In this document: positions 8,409 through 14,328 of the stretch, in pieces
How the letters are laid out: each line of letters begins with the position of its first letter
Position numbering within the stretch: position 1 is the first letter of the stretch
Origin: a virus
Direction: 5' to 3' (one strand)
Length of the DNA stretch: 64,000 nucleotides
Virus record (IMG/VR): IMGVR_UViG_3300025502_000011
Made by a program: the position numbers and the translations under genes
The notes under the pieces: generated by a model
Database searches by the model: none
Told to the model about the DNA's origin: nothing
What the model saw: only the letters and a program-made list of their open reading frames with translations

Positions 8409-8478
8409 GCTTTTAATATGAGCATGAGCGTAAAAAAAAGAAAGGAACAAATAATAAAACGGTGCATACGCACAATGC

Positions 8479-8518
8479 TGATAGCAAACTTTATTATACA
8501 CCTTGTTAGTTATACACA
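8479..8518 (+). mobile_element. Inverted half attC-like site
   Basis: 8479-8501 (TGATAGCAAACTTTATTATACAC) is the exact reverse complement of 9935-9957 in site A; it ends in the GTTAGTTATACAC core. Confidence 0.75.
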
Positions 8519-8608
8519 GTACGGTTATTTAAGGTAGAATTTTGATACGAAGAAAGAATAAACTTTTTAAAAATGTGCGGTGAAAATTTTAATTCTGAAT
8601 ATTTATAT

Positions 8609-8790
8609 GTGAACTACCCATCTACAGCAAGCTGATGGAAGGGCTTCTAAAAAAATATAAATGCAAAGAGCAGATACATATTCAGAATTTACAGCGTTTC
8701 GTAGACTTGCCCATTGGCAACGCCTCACCGCCTTTTTATTTATCCTGCGAAGTTGGCCCCAACCCACAGCTTAATATTTTGTTTCGCTTA
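8609..8790 (-). mobile_element. IS200/IS605 right-end (TnpB omega-RNA-like) remnant without TnpB
   Basis: Minus strand ends ...GAAGCCCTTCCATC-loop-GATGGGTAGTTCAC, resembling IS605 right ends; the preceding AKQNI..G reading resembles a decayed TnpB C-terminus. Confidence 0.55.
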
Positions 8791-8868: not shown

Positions 8869-9186
8869 ATGGAACAAGAAAAAAAATTAAAGAACTTCAT
8901 TAAAACTACAATCATAGAGTTTTTTAATGAACAATATGAAAATATTCAACATTATGATTTATTTGAATATTATGAAAAACAACCAAAAGAATTAAAGGTA
9001 ATTGTAGATAAATATTTGAATTTATTAGATAAACGTAAAGGTTATGATGTGATTAAGAAATTTCACGATGCAGTTTATAAAATAGGTTATACGTTTGATA
9101 GTGGATTAGATGCTGAACCACACGGTTTAAGACCCATAGGGGTTAAATTAAATCAGTTGGTAGGTTGGGAAGATATAGATAATTAA
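8869..9186 (+). CDS. Cassette-borne hypothetical protein with a putative head-targeting N-terminus (inverted cassette)
   Basis: KLKNFIKTTIIEFFNE leader; flanked by complementary cores GTTATACAC (8510) and GTGTATAAC (9204). Confidence 0.7.
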   Translation: MEQEKKLKNFIKTTIIEFFNEQYENIQHYDLFEYYEKQPKELKVIVDKYLNLLDKRKGYDVIKKFHDAVYKIGYTFDSGLDAEPHGLRPIGVKLNQLVGWEDIDN

Positions 9187-9212
9187 AACACGAATGTAGT
9201 ATTGTGTATAAC

Positions 9213-9324
9213 GCCACTTTTCATTTGTGAAAATTTTATCACCAATATTCTCATTTACAAACTGCTTAAAGTTCTTAACTTTATCAATCATTTCTCTCAT
9301 ATCTTTACTCACTGGTCTGTTCAT
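9213..9324 (-). pseudogene. Truncated cassette gene
   Basis: MNRPVSKDMREMIDKVKNFKQFVNEN matches the N-terminus of 12102-12620, then breaks at the GTTATAC core at 9212. Confidence 0.6.
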
Positions 9325-9442: not shown

Positions 9443-9838
9443 TTACCCCAATATTTTTTGAACCCAATCAGGTAATTTACTAAATTTAATTAATTTACAT
9501 TTTACTGTTGGTAAATTATTTCTAATTGATTTTTGAATCCTGTGATTTCCATCAAGAATATATTTAATAGATTTATCATCATTCATCAAAATCAATACTG
9601 GGTATTGTATGTCGGATTTTTCTATTTTATCAATTTCTTCTGTGTTTCCGTCCCAAGTTAATACAATATTTTTTAGTTTATTGGTATCCATTTCTTGAAC
9701 TTTAATGTTTTTTGTAAGGTCTAATATCTGAACTAACGTAACTGTTTGGTTGTCATTATTTGTCCAAGATGTATCTTCTAAACCTTCATTCAAAAATTCT
9801 CTTATAGTTGTTTTAATAAATCCTCTCAAATCTTTCAT
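9443..9838 (-). CDS. Cassette-borne ParB/Srx-like domain protein
   Basis: YPVLI...ILDGNHRI motif; leader MKDLRGFIKTTIREFLNE. Confidence 0.7.
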   Translation of the reverse strand: MKDLRGFIKTTIREFLNEGLEDTSWTNNDNQTVTLVQILDLTKNIKVQEMDTNKLKNIVLTWDGNTEEIDKIEKSDIQYPVLILMNDDKSIKYILDGNHRIQKSIRNNLPTVKCKLIKFSKLPDWVQKILG

Positions 9839-9922
9839 TGTTTTCTTTTATATATAAATACTTAGAATTTAAATTTTTGTTTATTTCTTCGTATCAACAT
9901 TTTACCTTAATTAACCACACCC

Positions 9923-10020
9923 ACACATAACAACGTGTATAATAAAGTTTGCTATCAAGTTCAGTGGTAATTTAAAAGTTCATCTAAGCAAACCTTCTCA
10001 TACACCCATTCGTTACCCAC
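9923..10020. mobile_element. attC-like site A
   Basis: ACATAAC...GTGTAT..AGTTTGCT / AGCAAACC..ATACAC...GTTACCC imperfect palindrome. Confidence 0.85.
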
Positions 10021-10041
10021 AATGTAAAAAGCCGCCAAGCT

Positions 10042-10560
10042 TTACGGCTGTATGTTTAGCAACTCTTTTTCTCTTTTTCTAATACTTCTATAATCTATAA
10101 AGTTATGTGTTCCTTTATTCGCTTTTTCGCCAAATATTATAATACTCATTCCCATCCATAAACCTCGTGGTTCATCATTAAAATTTACTTCACCGTTTAT
10201 AAAACGTATTTCTGCATCAATCATAGTTTCTGCCCACCATTTTGTATTACTTCTTACTGGTATTAAGCAAACTTTTGTGCCACCATTTATTAACGCTTCG
10301 TTATGTGCTTTTTTAACCCATTTACTTAAATTTCTATCAAATGGAGGGTTCATCCAACAATTACCAATCCAATCTTTATTTAAAGAATTATCTTCTTTAG
10401 TCCAGTATTTTGGTAATTTATGATTTAATGAACTTGCACAAACATCAGTAGTTATTGCAAACTCTTTTATTAAAGGTTGTACAATCGTTTTAGGTGTACT
10501 ATACTCAATGCTTTTACTCTCAAAAGAGTTGTTTTTATTTCCAATTTTATCTATTCCCAT
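10042..10560 (-). CDS. Cassette-borne phage N6-adenine methyltransferase (Dam-phage family)
   Basis: YSTP, DVCAS, W.GNCWMNPPF, LIPVRSNTKWW motifs. Confidence 0.85.
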   Translation of the reverse strand: MGIDKIGNKNNSFESKSIEYSTPKTIVQPLIKEFAITTDVCASSLNHKLPKYWTKEDNSLNKDWIGNCWMNPPFDRNLSKWVKKAHNEALINGGTKVCLIPVRSNTKWWAETMIDAEIRFINGEVNFNDEPRGLWMGMSIIIFGEKANKGTHNFIDYRSIRKREKELLNIQP

Positions 10561-10605
10561 TCTGTATGTATTTGCCCTCGTACCTCACGCACGGCTTTTT
10601 AAAAA

Positions 10606-10739
10606 GTGGGTAACACCGTATAAAAAACATTGCTAAATTGTGCAATATCAAAGGTCTGTTAATATTAATTTACTTTATTTCTAATCGTTAATTCTGTGCT
10701 TTCTAAACGCAACATTTCTTATACATGTACGTTAGCAGA
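10606..10739. mobile_element. attC-like site B
   Basis: GTGGGTAAC-ACC-GTATAAA ... TTATAC-ATGTAC-GTTAGCA. Confidence 0.85.
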
Positions 10740-10746
10740 AATAAAA

Positions 10747-10953
10747 TTATCCAGCCACCACACCATCAATAACCTTTCGTAGTTCAACATTTATTTCATC
10801 TCGCAAGTCCAACAATTCATCCATTGTTAAGTAACTTAAACTATCTTCATTCAGCCATAGTTCAAATGACCTTCTACCAGTTGAATGATAGATACGAATT
10901 GTTTCAATCTTCGTTTTCAGTGTTTCCGTTTGTCCCCCGTCTTTGATTTTCAT
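10747..10953 (-). CDS. Cassette-borne hypothetical protein
   Basis: 68-aa ORF filling the interval between sites B and C. Confidence 0.65.
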   Translation of the reverse strand: MKIKDGGQTETLKTKIETIRIYHSTGRRSFELWLNEDSLSYLTMDELLDLRDEINVELRKVIDGVVAG

Positions 10954-11016
10954 TTTTGTTTCAATTTATATTTACGAGCATCCCACGCTCAAAAGGGATA
11001 ATTTTACATCTGCTAA

Positions 11017-11071
11017 TGCTAACAACGTATAAAGTGCATTAAAACGCCACTTATACTAAGCATTAGCAAAC
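11017..11071. mobile_element. attC-like site C (right core ATT instead of GTT)
   Basis: TGCTAAC-AAC-GTATAAAGTG...CACTTATAC-TAAGC-ATTAGCA. Confidence 0.85.
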
Positions 11072-11263
11072 ATTAAAATCCACCTCTCTACCTTCTCCGC
11101 AAATATGGTAAAAGTCTTCTTTGTGGGCTTGCTCTCCTTTTTTCCAAACCCTTATATAAACATTTCTCGTAATTTTATTTCTCCTTGCTTTTATACCGTT
11201 TAGCTCTCCGTACTCAAACGGTTTGCTAACAAAGTATAAATAACATTGCTTAATTAGGTTCAT
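11063..11263 (-). CDS. Cassette-borne hypothetical protein whose start codon lies inside site D
   Basis: MNLIKQCYLYFVS N-terminus is encoded by site D; the stop codon overlaps the core of site C. Confidence 0.65.
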   Translation of the reverse strand: MNLIKQCYLYFVSKPFEYGELNGIKARRNKITRNVYIRVWKKGEQAHKEDFYHICGEGREVDFNVC

Positions 11264-11319
11264 AGTTTTAAATTTAGTGCTGCAAGTCGCAACGTTTCTT
11301 ATACTAGTCATTAGCACCA
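11221..11319. mobile_element. attC-like site D (right core ATT)
   Basis: TGCTAAC-AAA-GTATAAA...TTATAC-TAGTC-ATTAGCA; closely related to sites B and H. Confidence 0.85.
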
Positions 11320-11322
11320 ATA

Positions 11323-11898
11323 CTACGAAAGTACTTCGATTGAAAGTATTTTAATTTTAGTTTCATCGAATATCAATAAATTTAATTCTTTTGTTTCGAT
11401 GATATATGTTCCGTCATAACCATTAAGTTTCAACCAATCATATACCCAAGTTTGCTCAATTGATGAATAATCACCATCCAATAAATTATTATACTTTCTA
11501 TCAATGTCATCATCAGGAAATTTATCCTCGATATATTCTAAAAGATTTTTACCAATTACATAATATTCTACGCCAATTTTATCATTTACTTTACTTTTTT
11601 CATAATACATTAATAAATCATAGGTTGATGGTAACTTTCTAAAATCTATAATATTATTAGTTAAAACTTGAATTTTGTAAATATGTGGTGAATAATTACC
11701 AGCATAGTATTTAGCAAATTCAATATTTGATGTTAAAAATATTGGTGATTTGTAATTTATATCAAATAAAGTTCCGTTTTTTATCTTGAATTTATCGAAT
11801 TTTTCTTTAGAACCGTGATACCAAGTATTATCATTTACTATAAGTTGCTCATTAAGATATTCTCTAATCGTTGTCACTATAAACTTTCTCAATTCCAT
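11323..11898 (-). CDS. Cassette-borne protein with an ADP-ribosyltransferase-like fold and head-targeting leader
   Basis: WYHGS..F..F and IFLTSN..FAKYYAG ART-like motifs; leader MELRKFIVTTIREYLNE. Confidence 0.55.
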   Translation of the reverse strand: MELRKFIVTTIREYLNEQLIVNDNTWYHGSKEKFDKFKIKNGTLFDINYKSPIFLTSNIEFAKYYAGNYSPHIYKIQVLTNNIIDFRKLPSTYDLLMYYEKSKVNDKIGVEYYVIGKNLLEYIEDKFPDDDIDRKYNNLLDGDYSSIEQTWVYDWLKLNGYDGTYIIETKELNLLIFDETKIKILSIEVLS

Positions 11899-11949
11899 TC
11901 TTTTATATATAGATATTCCAAAATTAAATTTCTGACAAACAAACCGTAC

Positions 11950-12019
11950 TGGTGCTAACGCTATGTATATTCCAGTTTTGTGAAAAACAAAACCGATAAC
12001 ATACATTTAACGTTATGCT
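11950..12019. mobile_element. attC-like site E
   Basis: 11956-12012 is identical over 57 bp to 12683-12739 in site F. Confidence 0.88.
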
Positions 12020-12101
12020 CCATGCCTTAGTTCAGTTCTTCAATTTAACATTTGTGATAAAAAACAAAAAGAATTTTGCCAACGCACCTTATTTTTCAAG
12101 A

Positions 12102-12620
12102 CTATCTCTGTTTATTAATTTCTTTCATCACTTCACTATAATTCATATTAGGTTCGACATCGTAATAATTAATTACATCCTTAAAAACATCTTCACCATC
12201 AAATCCATCTCCAAGTATAAAATTTGAACTTTTAAACACTACAAGTTCTTGTTGTAGACTATCTTTATGATGCCAAGAAATATCTTCAATTTCTTCAATA
12301 GCCTTATTGAACGATTTTTCATCATCAAATCCATATCCTGATAAACCCCATTCGGGTTCACTATTCCACATACCATTTGTAACATCTTTTCTTGGTGGAT
12401 ATGGTACATATTTACCGTCCCCAACTCTCTCGTTGTAATCATCCATAGCATCTTTCTCCGTTTCAAACCATGCTTGCATATTTCCACTAAAATTACGTCT
12501 AGTATCATCATCTGCATCGCTTGTCCATCTTAGAAAATATTTGGAATTATTAAGATTTTCATTTACAAATTCCTTAAAGTTCTTAACTTTATCAATCATT
12601 TTTCTCACATCTTCGCTCAT
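12102..12620 (-). CDS. Cassette-borne hypothetical protein with a putative head-targeting leader
   Basis: MSEDVRKMIDKVKNFKEFVNEN; likely start at 12620. Confidence 0.7.
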   Translation of the reverse strand: MSEDVRKMIDKVKNFKEFVNENLNNSKYFLRWTSDADDDTRRNFSGNMQAWFETEKDAMDDYNERVGDGKYVPYPPRKDVTNGMWNSEPEWGLSGYGFDDEKSFNKAIEEIEDISWHHKDSLQQELVVFKSSNFILGDGFDGEDVFKDVINYYDVEPNMNYSEVMKEINKQR

Positions 12621-12678
12621 AGTATCTTTATATAAAAATAGTTTCAAATAAACATCATCCTTTAATAATTCAACACGT

Positions 12679-12748
12679 AGCATAACGCTATGTATATTCC
12701 AGTTTTGTGAAAAACAAAACCGATAACATACATTTAACGCTGTGTGTA
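12679..12748. mobile_element. attC-like site F
   Basis: 57-bp identity to site E; right core GCTGTGT. Confidence 0.88.
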
Positions 12749-12751
12749 ATG

Positions 12752-12934
12752 CTACACTTTTGTACGTCTTGGCGGTGGCTTAGATTTTTTGGTTCTGATT
12801 TCTTGGAAGTCACACTCTTTGTCGTAAAATTTACTACAACATCTTGCGCCTATTCCAAACAATGAGCGTTTAATATTTTCATTGGTACACCAAGCACCTT
12901 TGTTATTATATTTACAATTTATCTTTCTTTCCAT
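12752..12934 (-). CDS. Cassette-borne small Cys-rich protein
   Basis: 60-aa ORF between sites F and G. Confidence 0.6.
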   Translation of the reverse strand: MERKINCKYNNKGAWCTNENIKRSLFGIGARCCSKFYDKECDFQEIRTKKSKPPPRRTKV

Positions 12935-12963
12935 TTCAATATTATTTAATTAATAATCCGCAC

Positions 12964-13030
12964 TACACACAGCACTTTGTATAGTGCATAGTTCGTTCCT
13001 CACAACGCCACCATACAAGGGGCGTTGCCA
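12964..13030. mobile_element. attC-like site G
   Basis: ACACAGC-ACTTTGTAT...ATACAAGGGGC-GTTGCCA. Confidence 0.8.
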
Positions 13031-13245
13031 TTAGAGTTTAACCAAACATAAGCTGTCGGGTCATACTTTTTTGGCTTTCCTAAATATTGGCTTTTATCGC
13101 AAACCTTACACTCTCGTCTAAATCCTTGTTCGTATATCTGTTTACATTTTTTATCTTTAAATCTAGTCCATTTGCTTATCTCCCAAAAGTGTAAGGAAAA
13201 ACGGCAACTAACATTGTATAAAAAACATTGCTTAATTCTATTCAT
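13000..13245 (-). CDS. Cassette-borne hypothetical protein starting inside site H
   Basis: MNRIKQCFLYNVS N-terminus is encoded by site H; CKVC motif. Confidence 0.65.
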   Translation of the reverse strand: MNRIKQCFLYNVSCRFSLHFWEISKWTRFKDKKCKQIYEQGFRRECKVCDKSQYLGKPKKYDPTAYVWLNSNGNAPCMVAL

Positions 13246-13268
13246 AATTTTAAATTTAGTGCTGCAAG
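13203..13268. mobile_element. Truncated attC-like site H (array boundary)
   Basis: Matches site D through ...TTAGTGCTGCAAG, then similarity stops abruptly. Confidence 0.8.
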
Positions 13269-13300
13269 AACAGGTCTTTGAACTTGGGTCAAATCGTCCA

Positions 13301-13990
13301 TTAAAAAACTCTCTGTGTTAGTCTCTCAAATCCGTCCTTCCATGTTTCGTGTTTATCAAATCTTTCACCACAACCAGTGGTTCCACCTTTCCAGCTTCCT
13401 CTTCTCTTTCCTACTTCTGAAGAGAATTCAACGTCAATTGTACGACTCACTTGGCTGAACATAGTTGTTCGTTTGAACCATCTCATTCTCCATTCTCTCT
13501 CCGAGATGGATATATCGGCATTAACCACGTTCAGTTCTCCATTTGGAGTGTGCTTATCAACATACGGCATATTAGTTCTCCACATTTTCTCTTTCCATTC
13601 GTCTTTATAAAAGTCTTGTTTGTCGCCTTTTATTGAATGAACCCATGTTCCATCCTTCAGTTTAATGCTGTGGCGAACGTGGTCGAGATTCCAGGGCATA
13701 TTAATGTATTTAGATTTCTTTCCGTAACGAATAACAAAGCTCTGACTCTGCCAACCATCCTGATACCAATAACAGCCGTACTGTTCTGAGTCGCCGTAAT
13801 CCTTTCTCTTGTGTGACCAGGGCATACTCCAAAACAGGCTCCAGAATAGGAATGCTATATGGATTTGGGGTCTCTCATCATCAGAATACCCGTGGCACTC
13901 GTAAGTTAAGTGAAAAGCAACTGGTTTTCCCCAGCTGTATCTATAAAATGATATATTATCGTTTTCAAACTTCTTTGTGGGGTTTCGCAT
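13301..13990 (-). CDS. Phage hypothetical protein
   Basis: 229-aa ORF. Confidence 0.7.
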   Translation of the reverse strand: MRNPTKKFENDNISFYRYSWGKPVAFHLTYECHGYSDDERPQIHIAFLFWSLFWSMPWSHKRKDYGDSEQYGCYWYQDGWQSQSFVIRYGKKSKYINMPWNLDHVRHSIKLKDGTWVHSIKGDKQDFYKDEWKEKMWRTNMPYVDKHTPNGELNVVNADISISEREWRMRWFKRTTMFSQVSRTIDVEFSSEVGKRRGSWKGGTTGCGERFDKHETWKDGFERLTQRVF

Positions 13991-14062
13991 TCTACAAATG
14001 TAATCAATTTTACAAATATAAAAACTGTTCGAAGGGCGGCCTTTTTCTATCTGTAATTCAAG

Positions 14063-14134
14063 AGGGGCGTAGGGGGTTCGAACCCCTGACGTACAGGGTT
14101 AAAGCCTGATGTTCTACCTCTGAACTAACGCCCC
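14063..14134 (-). tRNA. tRNA with anticodon UUA (ochre suppressor)
   Basis: GGGGCGT-TA-GTTC AGAGGTA GAAC-A-TCAGG CTTTAAC CCTGT-ACGTC-AGGGG TTCGAAC CCCCT-ACGCCCC-T; canonical cloverleaf with a 7-nt anticodon loop. Confidence 0.88.
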
Positions 14135-14328
14135 TTGTGGTAATGTGCTATCCGATACAGCCAGTCTCCACAATACGGTGAAGATAGAATATCTTTCTTA
14201 GCCTGCATAACTCTTCGTAACGAGGAATATGGACCAGAGTATTTGGTCCAAGCCACCCTGGGGCGATGCTTAGCTGTATAGTTTGAAGTCCATTCTATAC
14301 AATATCTCGTGTTATCTACAGTAGCCAT
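14125..14328 (-). CDS. Hypothetical protein
   Basis: 67-aa ORF overlapping the 5' end of the tRNA. Confidence 0.45.
   Translation of the reverse strand: MATVDNTRYCIEWTSNYTAKHRPRVAWTKYSGPYSSLRRVMQAKKDILSSPYCGDWLYRIAHYHKGR

Follow-up and report, generated by a model that had tools for sequence, protein, structure and literature searches.

Hairpin-linked gene cassettes of probable integron type, with inverted gene polarity, in the accessory block of a salt-lake phage

The textbook case of gene capture in bacteria is the integron. Reports from phages are so far limited to a few clusters of attC, the integron recombination site, that lack an integrase. Such clusters, called CALINs, are known from virulent phages, among them P12002L, a phage of Polaribacter (Qi et al. 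2023, PMC9892861), and hardly any integrons are reported in Bacteroidetes by IntegronFinder 2.0. T4-type phages carry another kind of mobile unit, the promoter-early stem-loop (PeSL) cassette (PMC2839356, PMC4122927). Here we describe a family of hairpins in a 64,000 nucleotide (nt) stretch of viral DNA (IMG/VR record IMGVR_UViG_3300025502_000011), hereafter the window. The window belongs to a 141-kb record of a large salt-lake phage, approximately 64% complete. We suggest, with a probability of roughly 0.66, that positions 11063-13268 belong to an array that comprises about eight mobile gene cassettes of the integron type in which the genes are turned round relative to an integron. The hairpins are named sites A to H (Table 1). 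In the literature searched we found no report of this as a phage-wide system, nor of inverted polarity combined with coding use of the site.

Two genes of the array begin inside hairpins. A previous sequence-only reading held that these genes are unrelated and start within their own homologous sites, and this is confirmed. ORF D (open reading frame D, 66 amino acids (aa), N-terminus MNLIKQCYLYFVS) and ORF H (N-terminus MNRIKQCFLYNVS) start in a 61-nt repeat that is 89% identical between its two copies (11226-11286 and 13208-13268), and the BLASTP similarity of the two proteins ends after residue 13. In site D, an imperfect hairpin, the ATG at 11263 lies inside the 39-nt loop, and the 3' arm and the 3' box supply codons 5-13. 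Site H of the window has no 5' arm; a full hairpin precedes the ORF H gene in another contig, L010. Read on the coding strand, site D consists of TAAT, a 5-nt spacer, a 16-nt arm from GTATAAG, the loop, a 16-nt arm to TTATAC, a 3-nt spacer and GTTAGC. The plus strand thus has the 3-nt spacer first and the 5-nt spacer second, with the genes on the minus strand, as had been described.

The 3'-arm pattern recovered the same architecture in other viral contigs. A short-form pattern (GTATA, 3-7 nt, CGTTTTAATG, 3-7 nt, TATAC) has matches in viral contigs (at least 119) and in genome contigs (at least 120), the latter nearly all from Bacteroidota (Flavobacteriales, Cytophagales, Bacteroidales and Chitinophagales). 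The consensus of 77 aligned members is YAAC, 4-7 nt, GTATAAAnnnn, CGTTTTAATG, nnnnTTTATAC, 2-3 nt, GTTR. Family-wide, the sense-strand spacers measure 4-7 nt on the 5' side and 2-3 nt on the 3' side, loops range from 10 to 150 nt, and a base bulges out of the 3' arm in about 20 of the 77 sequences. Of these sequences, 67-77 retain the AAC/GTT pairs; the outer pairs decay. Stem positions covary, with 154 cells changed on both sides compared with 67 in shuffles (none of 500 shuffles as high), and three central stem pairs are each altered on both sides in 30-39 sequences. The commonest pair at the box-closing position is G.U (45 of 77). This pair forms on the folding strand only; the other strand would have A.C. 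The covariance model built from the 77 members finds sites C, E, F, G and D of the window on the minus strand. This strand folds better at all seven full window sites with RNA parameters, and with DNA parameters its stability equals or exceeds that of the plus strand at each site of the window.

The last bases of the invariant short-form loop CGTTTTAATG (for example at window 11036-11045 and in L026-L105) are an ATG, from which a six-codon frame runs (M-x-F-I-x-C). Where the 3' box is GTTAG, its TAG closes this frame. The loop of site A reads ATG AAC TTT TAA, and site 4 of contig L011 holds a 12-codon mini-ORF.

The cassette interpretation is supported by three independent tests that place the crossover at the 5' box, namely homology breakpoints, insertion alleles and the complementarity of cassette ends. 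Long alignments (at least 200 nt) between different contigs start or end 64 times at the 5' box, once at the 3' box and 9 times inside the site. The 5'-box endpoints comprise 52 alignment starts, at 21 distinct sites, and 12 alignment ends, at 8 distinct sites. One locus was found as three alleles, one empty (L067), one with 1175 nt (L084) and one with 254 nt (L144). Both inserts begin directly after ATAAC with their own hairpin arm, and both end in ATAAC. The ORF of the 254-nt cassette starts in the loop, crosses the 3' arm and takes its stop codon from the TAA of the following box, which is the same design as that of cassette D. Cassettes are thus gained, lost and exchanged at the 5' box. 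Because the crossover sits at this upstream box of the sense strand, the hairpin is inherited with the gene downstream of it. Breakpoints, alleles and end complementarity agree on this, so the proposal that the genes run against attC polarity holds.

Cutting of a circular cassette at AA|C predicts that the bases ahead of the next YAAC are complementary to those behind the cassette's own GTTR. In viral arrays, perfect runs of at least 5 in this circle form occur in 7 of 30 consecutive pairs; the controls gave 4 of 153 for the array form (the two flanks of the same site) and 34 of 3060 for random pairs. Within the window the runs are 6 (G to F), 4 (F to E), 6 (E to D), 6 (D to C), 3 (C to B) and 5 (B to A), against a mean of 0.69 over 49 non-cognate combinations. 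In cassette G the core is a variant: GCTG follows the hairpin and CAGC stands at the cassette end. These two changes compensate each other over a distance of 230 nt. In cassette D the end GTTTGCTAA is the reverse complement of its own 3' box GTTAGCAAAC, and the last codons, GTT TGC TAA, reverse-complement codons 12-15, GTT AGC AAA C. The N-terminal V-S-K and the C-terminal V-C-stop of this protein therefore correspond to one half each of a single box. In general, a cassette carries at each end one half of an ancestral paired box, which is what cutting a circle at AA|C would leave.

Folding and coding strand coincide at 61 of 67 sites in phage contigs. Of 97 phage sites tallied separately, about 80 are flanked by genes on the folding strand, and 3 have genes of the opposite strand on both sides. 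This preference would also be expected if the hairpins acted mainly in mRNA, at its ends or on its stability or downstream translation, as intercistronic structures with long-range stems closing each cistron, and if shuffling were a side effect of other recombination. Stabilisation by G.U pairs on the folding strand alone and the start codons in the loops fit such a role as well, and an RNA stem round each ORF could arise from pairing of a site's 3' extension with the complementary 5' flank of the following site. We nevertheless regard a role mainly in mRNA as unlikely. On the chromosomes of Bacteroidota the conserved strand runs antisense to its neighbouring genes, with 58 of 89 sites opposite to both flanks or opposite to one and ambiguous to the other, and 8 in the same sense as both; antisense placement is the classical integron orientation. 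The insertion alleles are base-precise at ATAAC and the breakpoints are one-sided. The hairpins match no Rfam family (chance-level microRNA and snoRNA matches only), they are not followed by a terminator-like T tail and are not called as terminators, and cutting of the stem on both arms would separate a loop-borne start from its ORF.

Shuffling of the PeSL kind is less probable again. Here the hairpins would be terminator and promoter motifs, and homologous recombination would swap the genes flanking them, as described for T4-type phages (PMC2839356, PMC4122927). The region is indeed a hyperplastic accessory block of small ORFan and anti-defence genes, and site B with its 45-nt leader is common to the window, to phage contig L004, where it precedes a different gene, and to P12002L. 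Exchange within a motif predicts, however, equal numbers of breakpoints of the '3'-box end' and '5'-box start' kinds, and we counted 0 and 52. The body of cassette D was found in four downstream contexts (the window, L011, L012-15 and L270), always diverging after GCTAA, so that it is joined to four unrelated downstream sites that share GCTAA only. Sigma-70-like promoter matches are not enriched at the sites (34 compared with 28.9 +/- 5.9), terminator calls are lacking as said above, and circle-form complementarity is not expected from PeSL exchange.

Two further candidates were rejected. Mimicry of CRISPR (clustered regularly interspaced short palindromic repeat) repeats was considered, as type VI-B repeats start with GTTG and end with CAAC; the box order is reversed here. 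The hairpin promoters of N4-type phages were also considered, and the stems here are about 25 bp.

The start module formed by sites D and H was searched for in metagenome contigs, which gave three matches (L270, L271 and L272); the exact pattern was not found in viral contigs. L270 has ORF D again, behind a half-site, and the other two have further bodies, MKRIKQCYLYHVI.. (40 aa, L271) and MKRIKQCYLYRVD.. (22 aa, L272). The module is portable, since the same module stands ahead of at least four different reading frames, those of D, H, L271 and L272. Among 44 long-loop members of the family, 16 show a sense ORF with its start within the site and a run of at least 30 codons past it, compared with 3 in antisense; proteins of 222, 247 and 359 aa are among these products.

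Orthologues were found in other metagenomes, P0001 for ORF H (95% identical) and P0002 and P0003 for ORF D (92% and 86%). P0003 has a different N-terminus of 47 residues, joined where the site-derived residues stop (..SSC|KPFEYG compared with ..FVS|KPFEYG). Over three orthologue pairs, ORF D shows 24 synonymous and 13 non-synonymous codon changes, and it is therefore under purifying selection. The loop ATG is the sole in-frame ATG, GTG or TTG before codon 61 in ORF D and before codon 78 in ORF H. The in-frame extension that lies upstream in the window is closed in L011 by a stop. That the shared N-termini are incidental, with both ORFs spurious or starting elsewhere and the loop ATG owed to chance in A/T-rich DNA, is very improbable: both ORFs are short and without a family match, the short-form loops also hold an ATG that gives a six-codon frame only, and the L272 frame stops after 22 codons, but orthologues at 92-95% identity in several metagenomes, the excess of synonymous changes, the lack of another start, the stop in L011 and the 16 to 3 preference for sense ORFs all speak against it.

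In the half-sites of window H (13269-13300) and of the L270 copy of ORF D, the 5' arm is lost at almost the same base, before (C)TTGCAGCAC. These two independent half-sites point to a second recurrent joint, or to a module boundary, within the loop.

The sequence-only reading had gone further and seen the site as a combined start and stop module, with stop codons overlapping the neighbouring core. The start half is borne out by the results above. For the stop half, the TAA of ORF D (11063-11065) is in fact the TAA of the site C 5' box TAAT (11062-11065), but ORF D is the only one of the seven window genes with its stop in a neighbouring core. Across the family, the stop of the upstream gene is the box TAA at 15 of 67 short sites, where the expectation from frame is about one in three. 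The stop is thus opportunistic, because the box TAA is in frame about as often as by chance, and a box TAA that does serve as stop belongs to the end of the upstream cassette itself.

It had also been proposed that a 4-nt loss at site G extended ORF H by APCMVAL, and that restoring TAAC recreates the stop. Near its end ORF H reads AAT GGC AAC GCC CCT ... TGA in the window; after AAC it continues GCC CCT TGT ATG GTG GCG TTG to TGA, and these last seven codons (APCMVAL) lie in site G. The orthologue P0001 in L010 reads AAT AGC AAC TAA C, which is the predicted stop. The H 3' box is GTTAGTTGC, with two GTT motifs inside, and the cassette end in L010, GCAACTAAC, is its exact complement with the TAA in frame. 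In the window, the H-G joint follows the inner CAAC of GCAACTAAC, and ORF H reads seven codons into site G because this inner-AAC joint left out TAAC and the stop. CAAC is a normal 5' box within the hairpin family. The extension and the absence of TAAC therefore stand, but, as the comparison of these sequences suggests, the missing TAAC is better described as use of an alternative AAC than as a deletion.

A number of observations weigh against the cassette interpretation. The record, as far as it is complete, has no match to tyrosine (PF00589), Y1 (PF01797) or serine (PF00239) recombinases. Among 18 near-complete site-bearing phage records, 13 have no PF00589 match and 5 have a tyrosine recombinase. 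Joints are also seen at the 3' box (the bodies of D, H, L271 and L272, and P0003) and in the loop (the half-sites of window H and L270, with a common joint next to CTTGCAGCAC); these are not explained by a single crossover point. The folds of the long-loop sites A, B and D are hardly more stable than those of shuffled sequences when DNA parameters are used (z -2.0, -0.15 and -1.0). Stems and loop are conserved in sequence, unlike those of typical attC sites. One Tenacibaculum array has no circle-form complementarity, and its copies look like a dispersed repeat. The oligonucleotide P12002L_attC1, predicted to be an attC (PMC9892861), is a member of the present hairpin family, and it is the only one of six sites that lacked a verified attI1/attC junction in the IntI1 assay of that study. 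At least six further members lie on the coding strand of P12002L, between its methyltransferase genes. It should be noted that we use attC for a likeness and not for membership, as no integrase or attI was found, stems and loop are conserved in sequence, and the one published member gave no verified IntI1 recombinant. Translation that starts at the loop ATG is predicted, as is any promoter within the loop.

In Bacteroidota genomes (L145-L224 and L265-L267), members of the hairpin family occupy the gaps between ordinary chromosomal genes. The protein that best matches the IntI model in the genomes of Tenacibaculum and Natronoflexus is Xer-like, lacks the IntI insertion and lies 1-4 kb from the sites, and the Xer-like recombinases near the Tenacibaculum clusters and the Natronoflexus site are 40-53% identical. 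No relative of these bacterial proteins was found in the 141-kb record, in P12002L or in three site-bearing contigs. The tyrosine recombinases that adjoin sites in L004 and L006 were considered as the cognate enzyme and set aside, with 24% or no identity to the bacterial ones.

Based on these observations, we propose the following arrangement for integron-type cassettes of inverted polarity. On the coding strand, a cassette would begin with the last base of YAAC, followed by an unpaired spacer of 4-7 nt, an imperfect hairpin (GTATAA.../...TTATAC), a spacer of 2-3 nt, the GTTR box with a short extension, the gene, and the reverse complement of the extension ending in YAA. We infer that a structure-specific tyrosine recombinase acts on the folded single strand, and this would probably be a Xer-like enzyme of the host or of a helper. 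Because the hairpin lies upstream of its gene, the loop could become the 5' expression module of that gene. In the D/H subtype, the loop would supply an A/T-rich leader, the ATG and four further codons, and the 3' arm and box would then be read as (I)KQC(Y/F)LY.V(S). New gene bodies joining at the 3' box would inherit the D/H N-terminus, and the TAA formed at the closing YAA of a cassette could act as a stop if in frame. We put at about even odds the broader proposal that Bacteroidota phages have an exchange system of their own here, with integron-like chemistry, inverted polarity, the hairpin as a 5' expression module, mixing of N-termini and a non-IntI, probably host Xer-like, recombinase.

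Table 1. Coordinates in the window of the sites, cassette genes and neighbouring genes; empty cells, no value given.
Feature	Position	Strand	Score	Remarks
Site A	9925-10020	-		outside 11063-13268; with site B, rest of array (9925-10740)
Dam methyltransferase gene	10042-10560	-		inside array, with site B
Site B	10605-10740	-		precedes Dam methyltransferase gene; outside 11063-13268
Site C	11015-11072	-	62.7 bits, z -3.5	short form, family loop CGTTTTAATG; 5' box TAAT (11062-11065)
Cassette D unit	11063-11310	-		248 nt; hairpin, ORF D (11063-11263), end GTTTGCTAA
Site D	11222-11320	-	40.1 bits	full hairpin; 5' box TAAT ends 11310; 3' box GTTA at 11230
Gene of cassette E	11323-11898	-		possible ADP-ribosyltransferase
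Site E	11951-12022	-	24.6 bits, z -5.3	5' box TAAC ends 12012; 3' box GTTA at 11959
Gene of cassette F	12102-12683	-		likely start 12620 (MSEDVRKMIDKV...)
Site F	12678-12749	-		5' box CAGC ends 12739; 3' box GTTA at 12686
Gene of cassette G	12752-12934	-		60 aa, Cys-rich
Site G	12965-13034	-	17.7 bits (covariance model)	5' box CAAC ends 13024; 3' box, variant GCTG at 12973
ORF H	13000-13245	-		81 aa, Cys-rich, no family match; first 13 codons site-derived
Site H	13208-13268	-		half-site: loop with ATG, 3' arm, 3' box GTTA (starts 13212); 5' arm missing
Gene of Acb3, inhibitor of the cyclic-oligonucleotide-based antiphage signalling system (CBASS)	13301-13990			flanks array

Sites F and E are 97% identical across 62 nt, and a G-type site is present in L003 too. 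The gene of cassette E matches PF18760 (ART-PolyVal) with an E-value of 7e-6 and 27.2 bits, under the cut-off of 31.2 bits. The 141-kb record encodes the replication genes of a large phage and three tRNAs, one of them an ochre suppressor. Almost all of its genes are on the minus strand, as is every gene between 9.4 and 14 kb, the accessory block, which also has several small ORFs without a family. Read directly, the genes have no Shine-Dalgarno motifs, and a Bacteroidota host therefore fits. A blastn search of 9800-13400 against the phage collection gave no match, and a strict regular expression for the site found no further copies in the rest of the record. Next to the array, a flanking gene of 569 aa has relatives that are only 36-44% identical, and a simple hairpin scan of these gave no convincing family sites.

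The suppressor tRNA (anticodon UUA, 14062-14134, minus strand) adjoins the array. Read-through of the TAA at 11063 by this tRNA was considered; only three codons would be gained before the next stop. Three single bases of the window, at positions 14300, 33039 and 61443, do not agree with the genome record.

Leaders recur at some sites. Site B and its 45-nt leader, which has a second small hairpin (TTTTTAAAAA.. GCC..GGC AAATA), occupy 10544-10725 in the window and 11639-11819 in L004, a 53-kb phage in which the gene behind them encodes 308 aa. A similar leader follows sites of P12002L (L025; 38016-38117, 38817-38949 and 30849-30964), and the site B leader looks like a portable 5' untranslated module. 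The leader of the cassette E region (12040-12095, minus strand) and the start-module copy of L272 (approximately 2140-2200) have a further conserved upstream block in common (GTGCG.TGG.AAAATTCTTTTTGTTTTT.ATCAC). Positions 8445-8615 on the plus strand are an inverted copy of the 3' half of site A with a leader of about 130 nt (9840-9952, minus strand). This copy precedes the sole plus-strand gene of the block and looks like a cassette in inverted orientation.

Two N-terminal motifs are shared between otherwise different genes. The motif ..FIKTTIREFLNE.. is found on three (8869-9186, plus strand; 9443-9838 and 11323-11898, minus strand), and M.(E/K)MIDKVKNFK.FVNEN on two (9148-9324 and 12102-12620, both minus strand). 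A TATATAAA-like motif lies upstream of each of these genes, and one of the carriers has the weak, below-threshold ART-PolyVal (ADP-ribosyltransferase) match. Both motifs end in L/V-x-E, as do the capsid-targeting sequences of the internal proteins of T4.

The hairpin family organises accessory and anti-defence blocks, and in the window a Dam methylase and a possible ADP-ribosyltransferase (the below-threshold match) lie inside the array. Genes are gained and lost with base precision. As the site stands ahead of the gene, each cassette would be self-expressing and no common promoter would be needed. Recombination can also create in-frame N-terminal fusions, a cheap route to new small proteins. 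The system offers a testable handle on the trade of counter-defence genes among phages of marine and saline hosts of the Flavobacteria type.

Among known systems, the host XerCD recombinases acting on attP of CTX-phi provide a case in which a tyrosine recombinase recognises a single-strand phage hairpin and exchanges one strand pair. Action of this type by the host would explain sites without a phage-encoded enzyme. In CTX-phi, the whole genome integrates at dif, and there are no gene-cassette arrays. The IS200/IS605 elements insert strand-specifically just 3' of TTAC beside a hairpin; they need a Y1 transposase and a hairpin at both ends, whereas the present record has no PF01797 match and each cassette has one hairpin.

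The sites share with PeSLs that short conserved stem-loops lie between small non-essential genes in hyperplastic regions and mark gene swaps among related phages; a circular intermediate has been proposed for PeSLs too. A PeSL, however, is a terminator with a sigma-70 promoter and is exchanged by homologous recombination. The present breakpoints are one-sided and base-precise at the YAAC box, the cassette ends are complementary, and the host range is Bacteroidota.

The likeness to integrons extends further. Like attC, the sites are imperfect hairpins founded on paired AAC/GTT boxes, and their asymmetric, probably unpaired spacer and variable terminal loop may correspond to those of attC. Each cassette has a single hairpin, crossover is at AA|C of the folding strand, cassette ends are reverse-complementary, and the arrays consist of small accessory genes that include DNA methyltransferases. 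Unlike in integrons, stems and loop are conserved in sequence (GTATAA, CGTTTTAATG), and there is no IntI, attI or Pc (the integron cassette promoter); the bacterial recombinases near some sites are Xer-like and lack the IntI insertion. In an integron cassette the ORF is followed by attC. Here, the genes lie on the folding (bottom) strand with the hairpin 5' of each gene, and in some genes the start and the N-terminal codons are inside the site.

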